Source: an uncultured Clostridium sp. (GTDB taxonomy: Bacteria > Bacillota > Clostridia > TANB77 > CAG-465). Taken from it: a DNA stretch of 64,000 bases. Below, in pieces: positions 2,167 to 58,518 of this stretch. Where the stretch lies: positions 5,866 to 69,865 of the forward strand of contig CAOKPF010000001.1 in assembly GCA_948470565.1 (NCBI GenBank), in the 5' to 3' direction. The notes below the pieces were generated by a model. The model was given only the letters and a program-made list of their open reading frames with translations, searched no databases and had not been told where the DNA came from. Each line of letters starts with the position of its first letter. Within the stretch, counting starts at the first letter, position 1. Made by a program: the position numbers and the translations under genes.

Positions 2167-2967
2167 ATGAAAAATAATAAGAAAGATGAAAAAAAAGTTG
2201 AAATAGACAACTATGAAAAATTAAAGAATGTAAAAAATAAGACTTTTTACACTGCCCTGGGACATGCTTTAGATGGAGTGATTAGAGCCTTTAAAACTGA
2301 GAGAAATTTAAGAATTGATTATATAATAGGGGTTGTAGTACTTATAAGTAGTTTGTTTTTTGATTTTACCAAGACAGAATTTGCATGTTTATGTTTAACA
2401 ATAGGATTTGTAATTTTTGCAGAAATGATTAATTCTACGGTAGAATATATAGTTGACTTGATTACAGATAAATATGATGATAGAGCAAAAGCTGCAAAAG
2501 ATATAGCAGCAGGTGGGGTCTTAATATCGAGTGCAGTAGCTGTAATTGTTGCATACTTTTTATTTGTAGATAAATTAGCTAATGCGACAACATCTGTTAT
2601 TTCATCTATACTTTCATCAAAATTGCACATATTGTTTACAATTATTTTCGTGATAATAATTTTAACAGTTATACTAAAAGGGATTTTTGGCAAGGGTGAT
2701 AAATTTGCACAAACATATCCTAGTGCAAGAGTAGCACTTGCATTTGCACTAACAACATATTCATATATAATAACGAGAAATATATTTGTTGGAGGAATTA
2801 CATTTTTGCTTAGTTTAATTATTGCTCAAATAAGAGTTGAGAATACAAAAATAGCCCCAGTTTATATGTTAATTAGTGCTATACTTGGTATATTAGTAGT
2901 ATTAATAATATATGAAATAGTATTAGTTGGTCCAGAAGTTGGTAATATAGTAAAAAATTTAATGTAA
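2167..2967 (+). CDS. diacylglycerol kinase family protein (DgkA-like N-terminal domain plus extra C-terminal membrane domain)
   Basis: N-terminal half matches the DgkA/undecaprenol kinase fold (ALGHALDG...AEMINSTVE...DIAAG). The C-terminal ~140 aa add further TM helices. Confidence 0.55.
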   Translation: MKNNKKDEKKVEIDNYEKLKNVKNKTFYTALGHALDGVIRAFKTERNLRIDYIIGVVVLISSLFFDFTKTEFACLCLTIGFVIFAEMINSTVEYIVDLITDKYDDRAKAAKDIAAGGVLISSAVAVIVAYFLFVDKLANATTSVISSILSSKLHILFTIIFVIIILTVILKGIFGKGDKFAQTYPSARVALAFALTTYSYIITRNIFVGGITFLLSLIIAQIRVENTKIAPVYMLISAILGILVVLIIYEIVLVGPEVGNIVKNLM

Positions 2968-2981
2968 TAAGGAGGAATATT

Positions 2982-3518
2982 ATGGAATATGAAGATTATG
3001 AAAAAATAATAGAAAAATTAGAAAAAGAGGAAATAGCAGAATTCCTATTAGACAGTTTAATGTCAAATAGCTCACTTAGAGATAGTTTTGAAATAACATT
3101 TTGTGAATATTGTTCTGATGGAACAAAAGATAGTATAAAAGAATTGTTGTATAATACTATAATGAGAATATCCGATAGAGGTTACATAGATGATGAAACA
3201 GGCAGTTTATTTATGGATATTATGTATGATTATGCTAATAAAGCTAAGGGTTATATAGAGAAAAATGATATAAAAAACGCTATTAATATAGTTGAATCAA
3301 CATTAGAAACAATAGGAGAATTTTATATAGATGGTTCTAATGGTGAACATGGCGATGTTCAAGATATGTTTCTGGAAATAATAGAAGATTTATTAAGTAA
3401 AAGTTCGGCTAGTGAGAAAGAACAATTCCTTATATGGTTAAAAGAATATATAGAAGTTAGCGATGAATTTGTAGATTATAAAGATGAGTTTAAAAATGTG
3501 TATGATAAATATAAATAA
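2982..3518 (+). CDS. hypothetical acidic protein
   Basis: Intact 178-aa ORF with an RBS (aggagg). No motif recognised. Confidence 0.4.
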   Translation: MEYEDYEKIIEKLEKEEIAEFLLDSLMSNSSLRDSFEITFCEYCSDGTKDSIKELLYNTIMRISDRGYIDDETGSLFMDIMYDYANKAKGYIEKNDIKNAINIVESTLETIGEFYIDGSNGEHGDVQDMFLEIIEDLLSKSSASEKEQFLIWLKEYIEVSDEFVDYKDEFKNVYDKYK

Positions 3519-8570: not shown

Positions 8571-9252
8571 TAAATATAGCATACATTAACGTCATCTATA
8601 AATCTTAATTGAACTGTGTGTTCGTTAAAGTTGGTTAGTTTTTTTGATACTCAATACGCCTTTAAATCCATGTTGGATAAGATGGTACTTCGGGCTGTGA
8701 GGGTAAGAACCTTATTGCAAAAAACTGACAATATACACTAAGAAGTAAGACTTAAAAATACCTAAACTTTTTATTGTTTTTTATTCATTTGTTATAATTT
8801 ATACCAAAAAGAGAAGATAAATTTTCCCCTTTATCTTCTCGACATTTCAATGAAACTATAATCTTTACAAATAGAAGAAAAGAAATATAAAGTAACTTAC
8901 TTCCTATTTGTTATTTACATTATACAACACTTATTTTATTTGTCAATATTAGTTTACAATAAAAATACTAACTTTTATTGTTTAACTATCGTTATATGTC
9001 TGCTTTGTATATTTATATGGCTCTTCTGGAAAGTACGTGATGTTTATCATAATTAAAATAACTTACTTAATATTATTATTTTTATACTCTTATTTCTATA
9101 TGTTTATTATCTAATAAGAATTAATTGTCATACATTTTTTGTAAGAGCCATTTATATTTTACTACTAACAACAGTACAAGCTAAGTATATTAATTTTAAA
9201 CTTTTATCATTAAATTTCTTGCAATTTTTAAGTTTATATTGTATAATTAACG

Positions 9253-9338
9253 TATCACCAAGCGATAGAAAGCTATGAACCTTGTCAGGTCTGGAAGGAA
9301 GCAGCAATAAGTAGTTATTTCTATGTGTTTGGTGTATT
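9253..9338 (+). ncRNA. ffs: signal recognition particle RNA (small 4.5S-type, domain IV)
   Basis: ccttgtcaggtctggaaggaagcagcaataag matches the SRP domain IV consensus (CAGGUCCGGAAGGAAGCAGC, GGAA tetraloop). 5' atcaccaagcgatagaaa pairs with 3' tttctatgtgtttggtgtat. Promoter TTGCAA-17-TATAAT at 9219-9247. Conserved position immediately upstream of dnaX. Confidence 0.7.
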
Positions 9339-9357
9339 ATTGTATAAGGGTGAGAAT

Positions 9358-15809: not shown

Positions 15810-16145
15810 TTAAGTAACAAAAAAATTCCAAATTATCATACATACCATACCCATTGGAAATGAAAATGTATAAGTAGCAATAGGCAGCCAATAAACGATA
15901 TGTTTATATTGAGTATTGATTTTTTTATTTAATGCAACACAAATTGTAATAAAGGATATGAAAATAAAATGGTATACCCCAGCTTCAATATATGGACCAA
16001 ATAAGTAAGTAAAAAAATACCCATTTTCAAAACATTCTTGTTTAGCTTTTTCCAAATTACACTGTCCAATGAAAAATTCAAATAAAAATAATGATACAAT
16101 GTATAATAATATTATTAAAAGTTTATTCTTTGTTTTTTTTGACAT
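15810..16145 (-). CDS. small 3-TM membrane protein, paralogue copy 4 (diverged C-terminus)
   Basis: About 95% nucleotide identity to the three upstream copies. GGGAGG RBS then ATG (MSKKTKNK...). The last ~8 residues differ (IWNFFVT). Confidence 0.7.
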   Translation of the reverse strand: MSKKTKNKLLIILLYIVSLFLFEFFIGQCNLEKAKQECFENGYFFTYLFGPYIEAGVYHFIFISFITICVALNKKINTQYKHIVYWLPIATYTFSFPMGMVCMIIWNFFVT

Positions 16146-16235
16146 AGTCATACCTCCCAATTTTTAATGAATTTTATTGTAATAGCAAATTTATTGACGA
16201 CATTAAAAATAAATCTTTAATATTTTTGTTTTTAT

Positions 16236-16583
16236 TTATCCAATAATATATGTTTCAAAAAAATTACCGATTATCATACATACCATACCCATTGGAAATG
16301 AAAATGTATAGGTAGCAATAGGTAGCCAATAAATGATATGTTTATATTGAGTATCGATTTTTTTATTTAATGCAACACAAATTGCAATAAAGGATATGAA
16401 AATAAAATGATATACCCCAGCTTCAATATATGGATAAAATACGTAAAGTACAAAATATCCATTTTCACCATATTCTTGTACCGCTTTTTCAAAATTACAT
16501 TCTCCAACGAAAAATTCAAATAAAAATAATGATATAATGTATAATAATATTATTAAAAGTTTATTCTTTGTTTTTTTTGACAT
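16236..16583 (-). CDS. small 3-TM membrane protein, paralogue copy 3
   Basis: Tandem 438-bp unit. Start at MSKK after GGGAGG (ORF track extends to 16598). Confidence 0.7.
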   Translation of the reverse strand: MSKKTKNKLLIILLYIISLFLFEFFVGECNFEKAVQEYGENGYFVLYVFYPYIEAGVYHFIFISFIAICVALNKKIDTQYKHIIYWLPIATYTFSFPMGMVCMIIGNFFETYIIG

Positions 16584-16673
16584 AGTCATACCTCCCAATT
16601 TTTAATGAATTTTATTGTAATAGCAAATTTATTGACGACATTAAAAATAAATCTTTAATATTTTTGTTTTTAT

Positions 16674-17021
16674 TTATCCAATAATATATGTTTCAAAAAA
16701 ATTACCGATTATCATACATACCATACCCATTGGAAATGAAAATGTATAGGTAGCAATAGGTAGCCAATAAATGATATGTTTATATTGAGTATCGATTTTT
16801 TTATTTAATGCAACACAAATTGCAATAAAGGATATGAAAATAAAATGGTATACCCCAGCTTGAAAATATGGATAAAATAAGTAAGTAAAAGAGTACCCAT
16901 TTTCAAAACATTCTTGTTCAGCTTTTTCAAAATTACATTCTCCAATGAAAAATTCAAATAAAAATAATGATACAATGTATAATAATATTATTAAAAGTTT
17001 ATTCTTTGTTTTTTTTGACAT
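16674..17021 (-). CDS. small 3-TM membrane protein, paralogue copy 2
   Basis: Tandem 438-bp unit, identical RBS/start context. Confidence 0.7.
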   Translation of the reverse strand: MSKKTKNKLLIILLYIVSLFLFEFFIGECNFEKAEQECFENGYSFTYLFYPYFQAGVYHFIFISFIAICVALNKKIDTQYKHIIYWLPIATYTFSFPMGMVCMIIGNFFETYIIG

Positions 17022-17111
17022 AGTCATACCTCCCAATTTTTAATGAATTTTATTGTAATAGCAAATTTATTGACGACATTAAAAATAAATCTTTAATATT
17101 TTTGTTTTTAT

Positions 17112-17459
17112 TTATCCAATAATATATGTTTCAAAAAAATTACCGATTATCATACATACCATACCCATTGGAAATGAAAATGTATAGGTAGCAATAGGTA
17201 GCCAATAAACGATATGTTTATATTGAGTATCAATTTTTTTATTTAATGCAACACAAATTGCAATAAAGGATATAAAAATAAAATGGTATACTCCTGCTCC
17301 AATATATGGACCAAATATGTAAGTAAAAAAATACCCATTTTCAAAACATTCTTGTTCAGCTTTTTTAAAATTACATTGTCCAATGAAAAATTCAAATAAA
17401 AATAATGATATAATGTATAAAATTATAATTAAAAGTTTATTTTTTGTTTTTTTTGACAT
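17112..17459 (-). CDS. small 3-TM membrane protein, paralogue copy 1
   Basis: First copy. Its start abuts the stop of the upstream 342-aa gene, suggesting translational coupling. Confidence 0.7.
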   Translation of the reverse strand: MSKKTKNKLLIIILYIISLFLFEFFIGQCNFKKAEQECFENGYFFTYIFGPYIGAGVYHFIFISFIAICVALNKKIDTQYKHIVYWLPIATYTFSFPMGMVCMIIGNFFETYIIG

Positions 17460-17461
17460 AG

Positions 17462-18490
17462 TCATACCTCCCAATTTTTGATATTGAACTTAATTGTAAT
17501 AGCAAATTTATTAACAACTTTACATGAAGTACCTATCATTGCTAAATTATTACCAAAAGACGCAAAAAAAACTTTAGCATAATCATCATTGTTTATATAT
17601 TTTTCTATTTCTTGGAACTCTGTAAAATCATAAATATCTGATAATTCTATATCCAAATTCCAATTTCCGTTATTTTGTTTGTTTCCACAAATGTTTATAT
17701 AGCTATTGTGTAGTGCTAGAAACAGATCACCACTTTCAAAAGCTAATGATTCATTATTTTTACCTGTATTAAACTGTTCCTTATTACCATATTTTTTAAT
17801 AATTTCATTTACTTTATTTTTAAAATAAATATTTTCCTTTATTTTTTCTACAACTTTTCCCTCTGTAATAATTATATCACTAGGCTTTTTTTGTAATGAA
17901 TGATTTAAAAATTCAGAGGATATATCATAATTACCTAGTTTTAGAACTAGAACTGCACATTTTAATATATAATGTTGTAACATTTGGGTCATATCAGATA
18001 AATAAGGTTTTTTATTATAATATTTACTAAATGCAAAGTTAACAATGTTAAATGAAATATTTTGAATATCATCATATTCACCATTCATTACTTTTTCGAA
18101 AATTTCTTTATATTCCTTATATTTTTTATTAATTTCTGATGATTGTTTAAGCGTAATAGCATTATTACTATATAAATTTTTGGAAGTAGTAGTACTATTT
18201 ATTATATCAATATCTTTTTGTAATAATTTCTTATATTTATCATAACAACTCAAAGGTACTTCATTTAATAAATTTAAGGTTAAGTATCTATTTGTTAATA
18301 TTTGTCTTTGAGCAGTAGGCAAATTTTTCTTATTACATAATTTTAATATTTTTTTATTTAGTAACTCCTCACCTTTTAGATTTTTTACATCAGAAATATT
18401 TATAGAACAACACATTTTCTTTAAGCAACCTAAACCAAATGTATATTTGGTATTGCTAAGTTCTCTACCACATAGAGTACATCTTTTCAT
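17462..18490 (-). CDS. hypothetical cytoplasmic protein with N-terminal CxxC...C..C zinc-ribbon
   Basis: 342 aa, MKRCTLCGRELS...GLGCLKKMCC. Extended -10 (tggtataat) and GAGGTGA RBS upstream. No other motif recognised. Confidence 0.6.
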   Translation of the reverse strand: MKRCTLCGRELSNTKYTFGLGCLKKMCCSINISDVKNLKGEELLNKKILKLCNKKNLPTAQRQILTNRYLTLNLLNEVPLSCYDKYKKLLQKDIDIINSTTTSKNLYSNNAITLKQSSEINKKYKEYKEIFEKVMNGEYDDIQNISFNIVNFAFSKYYNKKPYLSDMTQMLQHYILKCAVLVLKLGNYDISSEFLNHSLQKKPSDIIITEGKVVEKIKENIYFKNKVNEIIKKYGNKEQFNTGKNNESLAFESGDLFLALHNSYINICGNKQNNGNWNLDIELSDIYDFTEFQEIEKYINNDDYAKVFFASFGNNLAMIGTSCKVVNKFAITIKFNIKNWEV

Positions 18491-33537: not shown

Positions 33538-34347
33538 ATGAGTGAGAAAACTAAAATTGTAATAGTAGACGATAACAAAGAATTTGTAAGATTGTTAAGT
33601 CTATATATGAATTCCCAGGAAGATATGGAAGTAGTTGGGGTTGCGTATGATGGTAAAGAAACTGTTGAATTAGTTAAAGAATATAACCCTGATATATTAT
33701 TATTAGATATAATTATGCCAGAAAGAGATGGTATATCAGTATTAGAAGATTTAATGAAACAAAACTTAAATCATGAATTACTTACAATAGTTATGTCTGC
33801 AATAGGACAAGAAAAAATTACACAAAAAGCAATATCGCTTGGTGCAACATATTATGTGGTAAAACCATTTGATATGTCAACACTAGCAAATCGATTAAGA
33901 GATTTACTTGAAAGCGATGATGATGATAGATGCACAATGCCAACGGCTTATTATTCAAAAGAGAGGGATATTCCCAAAAGTAATCTACCTGTAGAAGTTA
34001 GAGTTACTAATATCATTCATGATGTTGGGGTACCTGCACATATAAAAGGTTACCAATATATAAGGGAGGCAATAGTTCTTGCTATAGAAAATGAAGATAT
34101 TATAAATGCTATTACTAAGACTCTTTATCCTACACTTGCAAAGAAATTTTCAACAACTCCGTCAAGAGTTGAAAGAGCAATTCGTCATGCAATAGAAGTT
34201 GCATGGAATAGAGGACAAATTGAGATGCATGATAAGATATTTGGTTACACTGTAAATTCTAATAAAGGAAAACCTACTAATTCAGAATTTATTGCAATGA
34301 TTGCTGATAAAATTAGAATGGAAACAAAAGCAGTTGTAAATGTATAA
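33538..34347 (+). CDS. spo0A: stage 0 sporulation protein A
   Basis: REC domain (IVDDN...LLLDIIMP). Spo0A_C with [20 protein letters not shown] and ...[17 protein letters not shown]. Confidence 0.9.
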
Positions 34348-51062: not shown

Positions 51063-51740
51063 ATTTTATATGTATGACGGGCATGTCATAAATCTAGGGT
51101 GAAAGTCCCAAGAGGCGTATTTGTCGCGAACTCGATAGCAACTTGCAAAGCGTAAACCAGTAATGGAGCGTGAAAAGAAGCAATAGCGAAATCGTGGCTC
51201 TATGAATAAGAACTTGATATTAAGGCTTATTAGATGGATAAGTTGCCAAAACACAACAAAGTCCAAAAGACAAACGTAAATCTAATGGGTAAATCAAGAG
51301 AGTAAACGAGGAAAGAGTTATGACTTATCCCGTGAGGTCCTATAAGCGAATAAGTAGTAACAACGAATTATAGGAAGTCAGCAGAAGTCATAGTAGGTAG
51401 GAAACGAGCCAATAAAGGAAAGGAAGTCTCACGAATACTGAAGGACTGAACAATTTATAAGACTATGGAAGTCTTGAAATCTCTTGCAATTATCAGAATA
51501 AATAAAGATGAGAGGTTGAGCGTATCTTAATGGGTAATCCAAGAGATGATGTTGCAAGATAACGAAAAGAAAGGAAATAGACAAGCTATGAAAAAAAAAA
51601 ATAAAAAGCTAGGACGAAGAGGATTAGTTTTTGCCCTAGATTATTATTTAGCTTGAAATCAAACTTATAAATTGAACCGCCCATTGTCGAACAGAACGAT
51701 GCGGTGGTGTGATAGGGGATGAAAATTTTATTTTATAAAA
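51063..51740 (+). ncRNA. candidate large structured noncoding RNA (identity unresolved)
   Basis: About 700 nt with no credible ORF. GC content is markedly above the local background. The + strand is purine-rich. Internal near-repeats (cttaatgggtaa(a)tc(c)aagaga x2) and five RRAAGTCY motifs; several local hairpins. Confidence 0.4.
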
Positions 51741-56052: not shown

Positions 56053-56841
56053 TTATTTTTTTCTTTCTTTATAGTTTTTTCTTTTTTCGCTTAATTGAAG
56101 CTTTATATCTAAAAACTGTTTATTAATTTTTTCGAAATCTAAATTTGGAAATGCTTCAATAATTCTTTTCTTAAATATATTTCTCTTGTCAATTATATTT
56201 TGTCTAATAATTTGAAGCTGCTTTAATATTTCTAAGTCTTGTAATTTTTCATTATTTTTTTCATTTATAGAATTTGCAAGTTTGGCAAAAGTAATTAGTT
56301 TTTCCCTTAAACTAAAAATAGTTGCAATAGTAATAGTAAAGTCAATAAACATAAAAATAATTATAGTACTTATAACTAAATGCTTATATGTATTAGGAAT
56401 AAAATTTATAATATTATTTGCAAATGGTTCAAATATATATGTAACTGCAAGGCAAAGTATACCAAATTCAGTAGAATTTAATAAACAGATCCTACCATTT
56501 AAGTTAAATTTATGTTTAGAATAATCCCACCATTTTGCATTAAAAATTTTTTCCATCATATAGCTAGTTATATATTCTAAAATTGATGTAGCTATCATTC
56601 CAAACAAAAAAATTATTAAAGGGTTATAATAGTAATCTGATAAAAAAAAAGTAATTATTAGACCACCAAATCCATATATAGGACAATAGGGACCAAATAA
56701 AAAACCTCTATTAACAATTTTTCTGTCACATATTGAACAATAAATCATTTCACAAGTCCAGCCAAGAATACTATAAATAAAAAAGTATAAAAATATAGTG
56801 CTAAATTCCATAAAATCACTTCCACTGAAATTATATATCAA
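56053..56841 (-). CDS. polytopic membrane protein (DUF1113-like)
   Basis: Multiple TM helices, YGFGG motif. TTGACA..TATATAAT promoter just upstream. Confidence 0.45.
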   Translation of the reverse strand: MIYNFSGSDFMEFSTIFLYFFIYSILGWTCEMIYCSICDRKIVNRGFLFGPYCPIYGFGGLIITFFLSDYYYNPLIIFLFGMIATSILEYITSYMMEKIFNAKWWDYSKHKFNLNGRICLLNSTEFGILCLAVTYIFEPFANNIINFIPNTYKHLVISTIIIFMFIDFTITIATIFSLREKLITFAKLANSINEKNNEKLQDLEILKQLQIIRQNIIDKRNIFKKRIIEAFPNLDFEKINKQFLDIKLQLSEKRKNYKERKK

Positions 56842-56960
56842 ATTATATATTTTGTCAATAAAATTTATATAGTCAAATATAGCTATTTATAGGGGAATAT
56901 TAATAAATTACAGACAAAAAAATATATAAATTAATATATATTAATAATTAATTTATATTT

Positions 56961-57836
56961 TTATGAGAGTTTATTGGGCATAATTTTGTTATTGTTTAAT
57001 CTCTTCGGGTTTAATTCCCCGACGCTTGCGTCGTAACAAACTAGGCAAACATTACGAAGTTTTGTTTGCTGGGGCGAATACCCCGCTCTCGAAGAGAGGC
57101 AAACATCTTTTCTAGATGTTTGAGGGCTTGCCCCGGGGAAGTTTATTATATTAAACATTTCTGTGATAAAAATTTTTGAAGTTGGACGTGAATAGGGGAA
57201 AAAATCATTTAAAACACTAGGAGTTGTATACTTATTCATTGTTGAAATAGATTTATCAATTGCCCATTTTACATGTAGATTAGATTTGGCATTATTTTCA
57301 TTTGCTATTATTTTATATAATTCCTTTTCAAATGGAGTAATAAGAGAGTTTTTATTTAAACAAATCTTTATACATTCTACTATGTACAAATAACCAGGAC
57401 TGCTTTTATTAAAATAGAAATTATTTAAAAGTTCTGATATCTTTGTTATAAAATCATTATTTTTTATCTTTTCTTCTATTATATTTAATTTATCTATAAG
57501 TTTATCAAAATCAAAAGGTTTTGTTAAAATTTCAGATATAGGAATATTAAGTCTTACTAATTCTTGCATTAAATAGGGGTCTCCTGTAATGATTATTATT
57601 TCTGGAAAATTTTTAATATCCTTTATTTTATTAATAAGTTCTAATCCATTTAGTTTAGGCATTTTTAGATCTAGTATCATTATATCAAATGAATTTGTTA
57701 TTAAATTTTTATATGCCTCTTCACCATTAATTGATATATTACTTACTATGAATTTATTTCCAGTGCTATTGTTAATATAGTTGAATATATTTTTTACAAA
57801 GTTTAAATCATCATCAACTATTAAAATCTTCTTCAT
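56961..57836 (-). CDS. Spo0A-like response regulator paralogue (REC + divergent Spo0A_C)
   Basis: REC domain (ILIVDDD...DIMILDLKMP). C-terminal similarity to Spo0A_C: GYLYIVECI versus GYLYLREAI; ELYKIIANENN...VKWAIDKSI versus VLYPDIAKKYN...VERAIRHAI; F.Y....K......F. It lacks the [12 protein letters not shown] helix. The last ~55 codons read through a GC-rich hairpin element and are probably not native. Confidence 0.6.
   Translation of the reverse strand: MKKILIVDDDLNFVKNIFNYINNSTGNKFIVSNISINGEEAYKNLITNSFDIMILDLKMPKLNGLELINKIKDIKNFPEIIIITGDPYLMQELVRLNIPISEILTKPFDFDKLIDKLNIIEEKIKNNDFITKISELLNNFYFNKSSPGYLYIVECIKICLNKNSLITPFEKELYKIIANENNAKSNLHVKWAIDKSISTMNKYTTPSVLNDFFPYSRPTSKIFITEMFNIINFPGASPQTSRKDVCLSSRAGYSPQQTKLRNVCLVCYDASVGELNPKRLNNNKIMPNKLS
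56985..57165. other. GC-rich nested-hairpin element (two tandem ~45-nt hairpin modules)
   Basis: Hairpins cgacgcTTgcgtcg, gcaaac..gtttgc, ggggCGAATAcccc, ctctcGAAgagag, caaacatc..gatgtttg, ccccgggg. Two aggcaaacat modules. GC content far above surroundings. Confidence 0.45.
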
Positions 57837-57930
57837 AAAAAATCACCAAAATGATTATATAATAATTCTGCGGTAACTTCAATACGTGAAATATCGTTTA
57901 TTAACATTTCCTTCTACTTTTTTCTACTTT

Positions 57931-57959
57931 TTTCGACAAATTTTGCAAAATTGTCGAAA
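57931..57959. promoter_or_regulatory. palindromic pair of Spo0A boxes
   Basis: TTCGACAaattttgcaaaatTGTCGAA, about 95 nt upstream of the Spo0A-like regulator start. Confidence 0.45.
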
Positions 57960-58344
57960 ACCTAAATTATAAGTTTATAATTATATGTATAAAAATTGTA
58001 ATTTTGTATAGAATAAATGTTAAAATAGTATACTTTAATATGTTATTTAATAGTTGGTATTTTGTATATGTATTTTTTATTGCTAGTATTTTCATAATAT
58101 CCCCTCCTTTATTTATATTAAAAAAATTATACAATATTTTTAATCGTCATTCAAATATTATGGAAGAAAATAGAAAAAAATAGAAAAAAGTAGATATTTT
58201 CAATTATATATACATATGTAATATGCTAAAAATTACATTATTTTAAATGAGCTTAAATTTTATTTTCTAATTTGTTGCAAAAATAAATAAAAACTATTGA
58301 CAAATAGCAAAAAATATAGTATTATATATACGCAGATTGGTTAT

Positions 58345-58420
58345 GGGCTATTAGCTCAGTTGGCAGAGCACTTGACTTTTAATCAAGTTGTCCGCAGTTC
58401 GAACCTGCGATAGCTCACCA
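58345..58420 (+). tRNA. tRNA-Lys (anticodon UUU)
   Basis: Cloverleaf: acceptor GGGCTAT/ATAGCTC, anticodon stem cttga/tcaag with loop cTTTtaa, T-arm GTTCGAAC, 3' CCA encoded. Promoter TTGACA-17-TATTAT at 58291. Confidence 0.9.
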
Positions 58421-58518
58421 ATATACCTATATTTTAGGTAAATGTTATAGAACTTTTAGCATTTAGTAATAAATGTTGAAAGTTTTTTTAAATTTATTTT
58501 TTATTAAGGTGGAAAAGT

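Follow-up and report, generated by a model that had tools for sequence, protein, structure and literature searches.

The stretch analyzed here, 64,000 nucleotides (nt) of contig CAOKPF010000001.1 from an uncultured Clostridium sp. (hereafter the window), carries two genes of the Spo0A type. The canonical spo0A was identified at positions 33538-34347. The second gene, located 23 kb away in the same window, encodes a divergent response regulator in which a receiver (REC) domain is followed by a Spo0A_C-like effector domain. Two inverted 0A boxes (TGTCGAA) lie upstream of this gene, and a structured mobile element is inserted in frame near its 3' end. The features of the locus are collected in Table 1.

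Table 1. Features of the regulator locus, in positions of the window (ORF, open reading frame; aa, amino acids; HTH, helix-turn-helix; AF2, AlphaFold2; L033 and L034, metagenome contigs nearly identical to the window)
Feature	Position	Strand	Description
Regulator ORF	56961-57836	-	291 aa as it stands: REC, Spo0A_C-like domain, 49 element-encoded residues, native 11-residue tail
Receiver (REC) domain	57486-57827	-	residues 4-117; Pfam Response_reg PF00072, E 9e-18
Spo0A_C-like effector domain	57159-57440	-	residues 133-226; PF08769, 35.1 bits, E 1.4e-8
Predicted second HTH helix (putative recognition helix)	57228-57281	-	residues 186-203, NLHVKWAIDKSISTMNKY; from alignments and AF2 helix boundaries
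Target motif TTTAA	56995-56999	+	flanks the element; already present in the empty site
Mobile element	57000-57146		147 nt, 49 codons in frame at ATA^TTAAA; from GC profile and empty/filled sites
Second target copy ATATTAAA	57612-57620	-	in REC coding region; empty in the window, filled in L033/L034
Candidate sigma-A-type promoter	57854-57882	-	TTGAAG, 17 nt, TATAAT; consensus scan
Tandem AAAAAAGTAG, two copies	57913-57934	-	adjoins the proximal 0A box on its downstream side; one arm of an inverted repeat (22 nt, 95%)
Promoter-proximal 0A box TGTCGAA	57932-57938	- (gene sense)	perfect; 95 nt from ATG
Distal 0A box, inverted	57952-57958	+	perfect; 115 nt from ATG
Small ORF	57967-58095	-	42 aa, hydrophobic peptide MKILAIKNTYTKYQLLNNILKYTILTFILYKITIFIHIIINL; also called as a gene of this length in L034
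Partner arm of the 22-nt inverted repeat	58173-58194	+	just upstream of the small-ORF promoter
Neighbors of the regulator gene			sleB, ypeB, membrane protein (Pfam CmpB family in L033), 42-aa ORF, tRNA, prfA

The residues by which REC membership was judged, namely the D8-D10 acidic pocket, the phospho-acceptor D56, T84 and K106, are all kept in the regulator according to the alignment, and the domain was modeled by AF2 with a predicted local distance difference test (pLDDT) score above 90. The match of the effector domain to Spo0A_C spans profile positions 1-99 of 104 and lies above the PF08769 gathering cutoff of 25 bits; the HTH region aligns to residues 169-203. When the C-terminal halves of seven family members were combined into a profile and this was searched against the PDB, only the Spo0A effector entries 1FC3 and 1LQ1 were matched (E 4e-9, residues 5-113 of 120). 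Foldseek searches with the full-length model were swamped by receiver domains and uninformative for the effector domain, which was consequently modeled alone. This model (pLDDT 92) has six helices, as does the Spo0A effector fold, and superimposes on 1LQ1 with a template modeling (TM) score of 0.81 and a root-mean-square deviation of 1.8 Å over 100 columns. Its significant matches were Spo0A-C entries only, the next non-Spo0A structure appearing at E 0.7. In the full-length AF2 model residues 1-230 are confident (block means of at least 90), while residues 240-291 fall below 50. Based on the modeled and profiled homology of both domains, the window is confirmed to encode a second REC plus Spo0A_C protein beside the canonical Spo0A, as a sequence-only reading of this DNA had proposed; the significant Spo0A_C match at residues 133-226 (35.1 bits) is the one which that reading had called for. 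No histidine kinase gene was found among the flanking genes inspected, and the regulator is therefore an orphan, as Spo0A is in Clostridia.

The relationship to Spo0A is distant. The canonical Spo0A of the window scored 154 bits against Spo0A_C and 364.2 bits against NCBIfam TIGR02875 (spore_0_A). The regulator scored 63.9 bits against TIGR02875, which does not reach the equivalog cutoff of 200; this is nonetheless its best NCBIfam model, aligned over residues 3-217. By BLASTP the two proteins of the window align end-to-end with 21% identity over 254 columns (E 2e-10). Common to both are the REC plus Spo0A_C architecture, the effector fold, an intact phosphorylation site and a set of core positions (G-Y-x-Y, L-Y, F-x-Y, P-T and F-I). 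The regulator differs in its TIGR02875 score, in a linker of about 15 residues rather than about 35, in the Spo0A signature, which is replaced by NNFYFNKSSPGY with only G-Y retained in the alignment with the window's Spo0A, and in the second HTH helix. The segment aligned with the Spo0A recognition helix reads LHVKWAIDKSISTMN (L-H-V-K-W-A-I-D-K-S-I-S), so that V-K-W-A-I-D-K stands where Spo0A has V-E-R-A-I-R-H; the window's own Spo0A retains this segment. B. subtilis Spo0A was included in this alignment as well. From the Spo0A-C structures we take the signature to lie at the start of the effector domain rather than in the recognition helix, and the V-E-R-A-I-R-H-type segment to be the second HTH helix, that is, the recognition helix; the base-contacting residues of Spo0A are taken from the literature on 1LQ1. 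The earlier statement that the regulator lacks the recognition helix was therefore a mislabel, because the missing signature belongs to the domain start; the helix is present at residues 186-203 in a re-specified form. The regulator is thus a divergent Spo0A homolog over both domains and is not a Spo0A proper. The nearest Spo0A proteins to the canonical Spo0A of the window are at most 75% identical to it, and the few named ones are labeled only 'Clostridia bacterium'.

An exhaustive hidden Markov model (HMM) search with the C-domain profile identified at least 433 cluster representatives (50%-identity clusters) at E<=1e-10, while a word-indexed search returned a handful of relatives only, all of about 233-240 aa. 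Members of the family are mostly 232-250 aa long, about 238 aa being typical, and carry the effector domain at approximately residues 128-236. In an alignment of 97 sequences the putative recognition helix follows the pattern [IV]-K-W-x-I-x-[KR]-x-I-x-x-M, with K in 73, W in 71, I in 81, [KR] in 88 and M in 86 of the sequences, and the domain begins with F-x-F-N-K-S-S-x-G-Y-x-Y. This group is referred to below as the K-W family. Conservation of such specific motifs points to a function that has been maintained and involves a DNA specificity other than that of Spo0A, and the regulator of the window probably shares this distinct specificity, judging from its helix. The phospho-acceptor Asp (D56) is present in 80/97 and the switch Lys (K106) in 79/97. 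About 17% of the family (17/97), including P0148, P0157, P0167, P0194, P0199, P0277 and P0007, have a pseudo-receiver in which the phospho-acceptor Asp is replaced by N, E, Q or K.

The K-W family derives almost wholly from uncultured, AT-rich Clostridia; among the ten top-scoring members looked up, the only name given by the source was 'response regulator [Clostridia bacterium]'. No conserved gene neighbors were found across family members, the contexts of which vary (an extracytoplasmic function (ECF) sigma operon, Mbeg1-like, trypsin-like and others). The same search also yielded stand-alone domains of about 110 aa and proteins with three to four tandem Spo0A_C domains, which appear nearer canonical Spo0A_C than the K-W family. 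Two of these, P0131 (439 aa) and P0136 (454 aa), are built of four Spo0A_C domains in tandem and lack a receiver domain; their Spo0A motifs (GIPCHVKGYQYL, VERAI) are near-canonical. This architecture was unfamiliar to us. Paralogs of Spo0A as such are known already: in a survey of Clostridiales by Galperin and co-workers they were present in 11 of 118 Spo0A-positive genomes, ten with two copies and one, Anaerostipes hadrus, with three (bioRxiv 10.1101/2022.02.25.481979). As in the present case, a genome of the Clostridia there carries more than one gene of the spo0A type; the survey gives no sequences or functions of its paralogs. The view that Spo0A_C is normally unique to Spo0A accordingly needs qualification, since paralogs exist in those 11 genomes and the K-W family numbers hundreds. 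No description of the divergent K-W family was found in the literature. The K-W family descends from Spo0A and is uncharacterised.

Upstream of the regulator the two 0A boxes form the palindrome TTCGACA-N13-TGTCGAA (TTCGACAAATTTTGCAAAATTGTCGAA) at 57932-57958, so that the two inverted boxes described from the sequence alone, some 95 nt from the gene, are indeed there, and both are perfect. It is the sole such pair in the window and was reproduced in 0 of 100 shuffles. Perfect TGTCGAA occurs eight times in the window against 1.9 expected (an enrichment of about 4-fold), a count reached by none of 100 shuffles. The positions are 4046, 27490, 33434, 36181, 43265, 51685, 57932 and 57952; one box thus precedes spo0A by about 100 nt, another a gene for a DivIVA-domain protein (36309) by about 125 nt and a third a gene for an HD-domain protein (51850) by about 160 nt. 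Downstream of the candidate promoter, a likely ribosome-binding site, GGTGA, precedes the ATG of the regulator.

Conservation of this region was assessed in L035, a low-coverage contig with the nearest diverged ortholog (77% amino-acid identity); the promoters of L033 and L034 are too close to that of the window to inform on the boxes. L035 keeps the proximal TGTCGAA at the same position (-101/-102), enclosed in a 32-nt block, GCAAA-n-TTTGTCGAAAAAAGTAGAAAAAAGTAGAA, which is identical but for one base. Also kept are the tandem AAAAAAGTAG repeat (identical), both promoter hexamers (-35 and -10) and the ribosome-binding site. In C. difficile a perfect 0A box is predictive of Spo0A binding in vitro (PMC3485338). 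Because the proximal box is conserved in L035 and a perfect box predicts Spo0A binding, control of the regulator by Spo0A via the proximal box is plausible in this lineage.

Several observations weigh against such control. The distal 0A box is lost in L035, and for this reason the palindrome itself is not conserved there; on this comparison conservation does not extend to the 'palindromic double box' as a unit. In six more distant family members no TGNCGAA precedes the gene, so that Spo0A control would be lineage-specific at best. The boxes also lie at about -85 to -111 relative to a predicted start site, the proximal one about 50 nt upstream of the -35 hexamer. The earlier suggestion of Spo0A control therefore holds in part. 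In its favor are the proximal box kept in L035 and the helix segment kept in the window's own Spo0A; the distal half of the palindrome is wanting in the ortholog, and neither half was found upstream of the six distant homologs.

The tandem AAAAAAGTAG repeat next to the proximal box would be a candidate operator for the regulator itself or for another factor. A similar tandem motif (two copies) lies upstream of the distant homolog P0003 in L002, and one copy is present in L038. Counting against a role in the wider family, the promoter regions of L001, L004, L037 and L039 contain no AAAAAAGTAG motif. As a family-wide operator the repeat was rejected for weak support, tandem copies being confined to the window/L035 and L002, and AAAAAAGTAG as the K-W family's own operator is only an idea suggested by these occurrences. 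The 22-nt inverted repeat of which the tandem copies form one arm is composed of AAAAAA[G/A]TAG units and brackets the small ORF; such a repeat may represent two paired operators or delimit a small unit that was inserted. The small ORF itself has a strong ribosome-binding site (AAGGAGGGG) and a promoter-like site (TTGAAT, 17 nt, TATAAT) at 58126-58154.

The palindrome might instead act in the transcript of the small ORF, as a 3' stem-loop (a stabilizer or weak terminator), or serve as the operator of an unrelated dimeric repressor. It starts 9 nt past the stop codon of the small ORF and can be folded to a 10-bp stem of about -10 kcal/mol. A hairpin is found at the same place in L035, with the 0A box as its 3' arm, and is maintained there through G.U pairs, which would not preserve a palindrome in the DNA. 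Because the palindrome forms a stem after the small ORF and L035 retains a stem, a role as an RNA hairpin is a live rival to Spo0A control. As an intrinsic terminator the palindrome was rejected, since it is followed by a U-tract on neither strand and a scan for terminators was empty. The strictly conserved part, moreover, is exactly one perfect 0A box, a motif enriched in the window, and on balance this explanation is considered unlikely.

The 3' end of the regulator gene is not native. All homologs end about 10 residues past an F-I-x-E motif, whereas the regulator ORF continues for 60. The additional sequence coincides with the GC maximum of the window (about 50%, where the window as a whole has 26%), which folds into a series of hairpins (z -4.1). 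A near-identical empty-site allele, P0121 in L033, ends in FITEMFNILNNNKIMPNKLS followed by the stop codon. The insert accounts for 49 of the 291 residues, based on the empty allele and the target match, and the native regulator is therefore 242 aa; the ORF of 291 aa previously taken as the length of the regulator is real, with some 49 of its residues contributed by the element. The boundary of the element is ambiguous by 1 nt. The element is read on the minus strand in the alignments and lies on the plus strand in transposon orientation, with the target motif on the 5' side. The element-encoded residues have AF2 pLDDT values below 50. The element, read through in frame, thus adds a 49-residue segment, disordered according to the model, near the C-terminus of the regulator.

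L033 and L034, from two ENA samples, match the window with 99.9-100% identity along about 3.6 kb (L033) and about 2.4 kb (L034), except for the position of the element. In both contigs the 3' site is empty and an identical 155-nt block (the 147-nt element plus 8 target bases) is located in the REC coding region, where it splits the regulator gene into ORFs of 84 aa and 153 aa (L033 1709-2584; L034 1382-2257). At either site the insertion adds 147 nt net, without target duplication and at the same 8-mer, ATA^TTAAA; the empty sites read ATATTAAA once. The difference between these contigs and the window represents either a very recent intragenic relocation or two independent insertions.

Since the gene is naturally disrupted in these two sister contigs, the regulator may be dispensable, which weighs against the reading favored below. 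It could even be a decaying or dispensable remnant of a Spo0A duplication that has no function today, with the insertions reflecting relaxed selection. Consistent with this are the interruption of REC in two metagenome contigs, independent of each other, that share 99.9% identity with the window, the insertion in the window copy, the loss of the phospho-acceptor Asp in 17/97 family members and the fact that several database entries are fragments. The 242 native codons are nevertheless intact and the motifs are strongly conserved over hundreds of clusters; the AF2 models are very confident, and L035 keeps the promoter, the ribosome-binding site and the upstream block. Decay of the gene is for these reasons regarded as rather improbable.

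No second copy of the element was found in the 64-kb window by BLAST or covariance model. A 20-mer scan of a genome collection (species representatives) revealed one true copy, L007, in an Acetatifactor metagenome-assembled genome at a locus of 51% GC; L008 was rejected as a chance 20-mer match. A metagenome scan revealed 24 further loci (in the range L009-L034), all with different flanks, on contigs of 32-58% GC, and a scan of viral contigs revealed none. Most other copies measure 141-143 nt rather than 147 nt. The motif TT[C/A]AA follows every copy in element sense (CTCAA in L007) and the other flank varies; in the orientation in which the window reads TTTAA, most other copies have TTGAA. 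The variant of the flank motif co-varies with an internal segment by the end hairpin (AATGTA versus AATTA[A/G]A). Subterminal stem-loops are formed by two similar G[CAAG]C hairpins, one about 13 nt and the other about 20 nt from the ends. In a consensus structure from 15 distinct aligned copies, 6 of 36 predicted pairs showed double compensatory changes. Of the two end hairpins, the 3' one has compensatory changes in three pairs and the 5' one has them in one copy. The L007 copy carries compensatory changes in several hairpins. The covariance model matched the window at 56995-57147 with 104.5 bits. No Rfam family was found for the element, whether the whole window was searched at gathering thresholds, positions 56800-58500 at E<=1, or the L010 copy at E<=5, and it could not be matched with any described repeat.

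Two further observations concern the other copies. A weak second match to the model (26.7 bits, E 1.6e-4) occurs in L011 at 2927-3010 on the minus strand, about 800 nt from the full copy, and is maybe a degraded element. Between L010 and L021, L025 and L029, and L013, L023 and L025, one flank of the element is common and the other differs; this single-flank sharing between metagenome contigs is due either to assembly mis-joins at the repeat or to real recombination or cassette exchange at the element.

IS200/IS605 insertion sequences insert beside a target motif with no duplication, excise scarlessly and give rise to protein-less derivatives, the palindrome-associated transposable elements (PATEs) (PMC10055086). 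The element of the window resembles PATEs in its one-sided motif, the absence of duplication, the scarless empty site, the stem-loops near its ends, the lack of coding capacity and the presence of many copies in differing flanks. It differs in having extra conserved internal hairpins, in the absence of a TnpA/TnpB partner beside the copies and in sitting in a coding sequence. The genes beside the copies (integrases, AIPR, ATPase) are typical of mobile and defence islands. Two points tell against the assignment: no transposase is found beside any copy of the element, this genome being seen only over 64 kb, and none recurs beside the 24 other copies; and the internal hairpins exceed the needs of end recognition by TnpA. 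Based on these comparisons the element is assigned, with moderate confidence because the partner transposase is unseen, to the non-autonomous miniature elements of the IS200/IS605 type (HUH, single-strand).

The insert could alternatively be primarily an RNA element, propagated along with a mobile unit or as one itself, such as the guide-RNA scaffold of a TnpB/IscB-type nuclease or another structured non-coding RNA. Its five or six hairpins include UUCG-type and CAAG loops, compensatory changes extend across contigs of 26% to 58% GC, and the window and L007 share a TATAAT at the 5' edge; omega-RNAs are a frequent component of PATEs (PMC10055086). Against this, Rfam, which includes IS605-associated RNAs, gave no match, TATAAT is lost in most copies and no nuclease gene is linked. 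An RNA element of this kind is accordingly held to be doubtful, and we retain the IS200/IS605-type miniature element.

The same 50 residues also occur within P0009, an unrelated protein of 302 aa, whose junctions (I / ... / L-K) fit the same target; the insertion site was deduced from the protein sequence, as exact-sequence look-ups gave no contig for P0009, nor for the regulator or the prfA product of the window. Rickettsia palindromic elements are short structured repeats that lie in frame within protein-coding genes and are translated as an extra peptide. The two are alike in the in-frame translated insertion; their sequences are unrelated and their hosts belong to different groups. Since most copies are 141-143 nt long, the element is not consistently a multiple of three. 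In-frame insertion as a general property of the element was rejected, most copies being of that length and only some lying in long ORFs, and the in-frame read-through seen here is best seen as a tolerated accident.

Other features of the window were noted. Group II intron domains at 51154-51446 on the plus strand (Rfam D1-D4-3, 97.9 bits; D1-D4-1, 38.8 bits) indicate a group II intron or fragment at a distance of about 5.5 kb from the regulator. A run of four ORFs (116-120 aa each) at 15810-17474 on the minus strand is a tandem array of paralogous small genes, visible also as periodic BLAST matches; its last three members are spaced at exactly 438 nt. A small signal recognition particle (SRP) RNA was located at 9249-9346 on the plus strand (66 bits). 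A tRNA (67 bits) with the anticodon loop CUUUUAA, probably tRNA-Lys-UUU, is encoded at 58345-58417 on the plus strand, divergent from the upstream region of the regulator and just ahead of prfA.

The explanation that we favor, with confidence a little above even, is that the locus encodes an orphan regulator derived from Spo0A, with a specificity of its own, which in this lineage is wired to phosphorylated Spo0A (Spo0A~P), and that its gene bears a miniature element of the IS200/IS605 type. The protein would be a DNA-binding transcription factor controlled by phosphorylation, with a target other than the 0A box. Its promoter would respond to Spo0A~P via the conserved proximal TGTCGAA, which would place the regulator in the Spo0A regulon; from the promoter sequence it is possibly downstream of the master regulator. 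The element would have inserted scarlessly beside TTTAA, the REC domain being interrupted instead in the near-identical strains. A more far-reaching version, in which the K-W family is a separate and widespread developmental or transition-state regulator of uncultured Clostridia with a DNA code of its own, under Spo0A control here, and the element is a reversible, scarless switch between the two 8-nt targets, the one in REC being disruptive and the in-frame one at the 3' end tolerated, is considered distinctly improbable. Highly improbable, too, is autoregulation by a paralog of related specificity, as the sequence-only reading had suggested, in which a symmetric dimer of the regulator binds the 0A-type boxes of the palindrome, and Spo0A is titrated or meets competition: two perfect inverted boxes, a layout suited to such a dimer and the common Spo0A-C fold are in its favor, but the change from E-R...R-H to K-W...D-K is a conserved family signature, the distal half-site is gone in L035 though the gene is kept, and the six more distant family members have no 0A-like boxes upstream. 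Titration of Spo0A by the regulator is unsupported.

Two consequences follow for annotation and for the element. A structured element translated in frame inflated the regulator ORF by 49 residues, which is a warning for the annotation of similar genes, and the locus appears to document very recent movement of the element between two sites of a single gene, the strains being nearly identical otherwise. Endospore formers have Spo0A as their defining regulator, with an effector domain whose fold is commonly regarded as confined to that one protein. The K-W family, sizeable as it is, keeps the Spo0A-C fold and rewrites the recognition helix; it points to an unexplored branch of the sporulation/transition-state network and offers a natural experiment in specificity change of the Spo0A effector domain.

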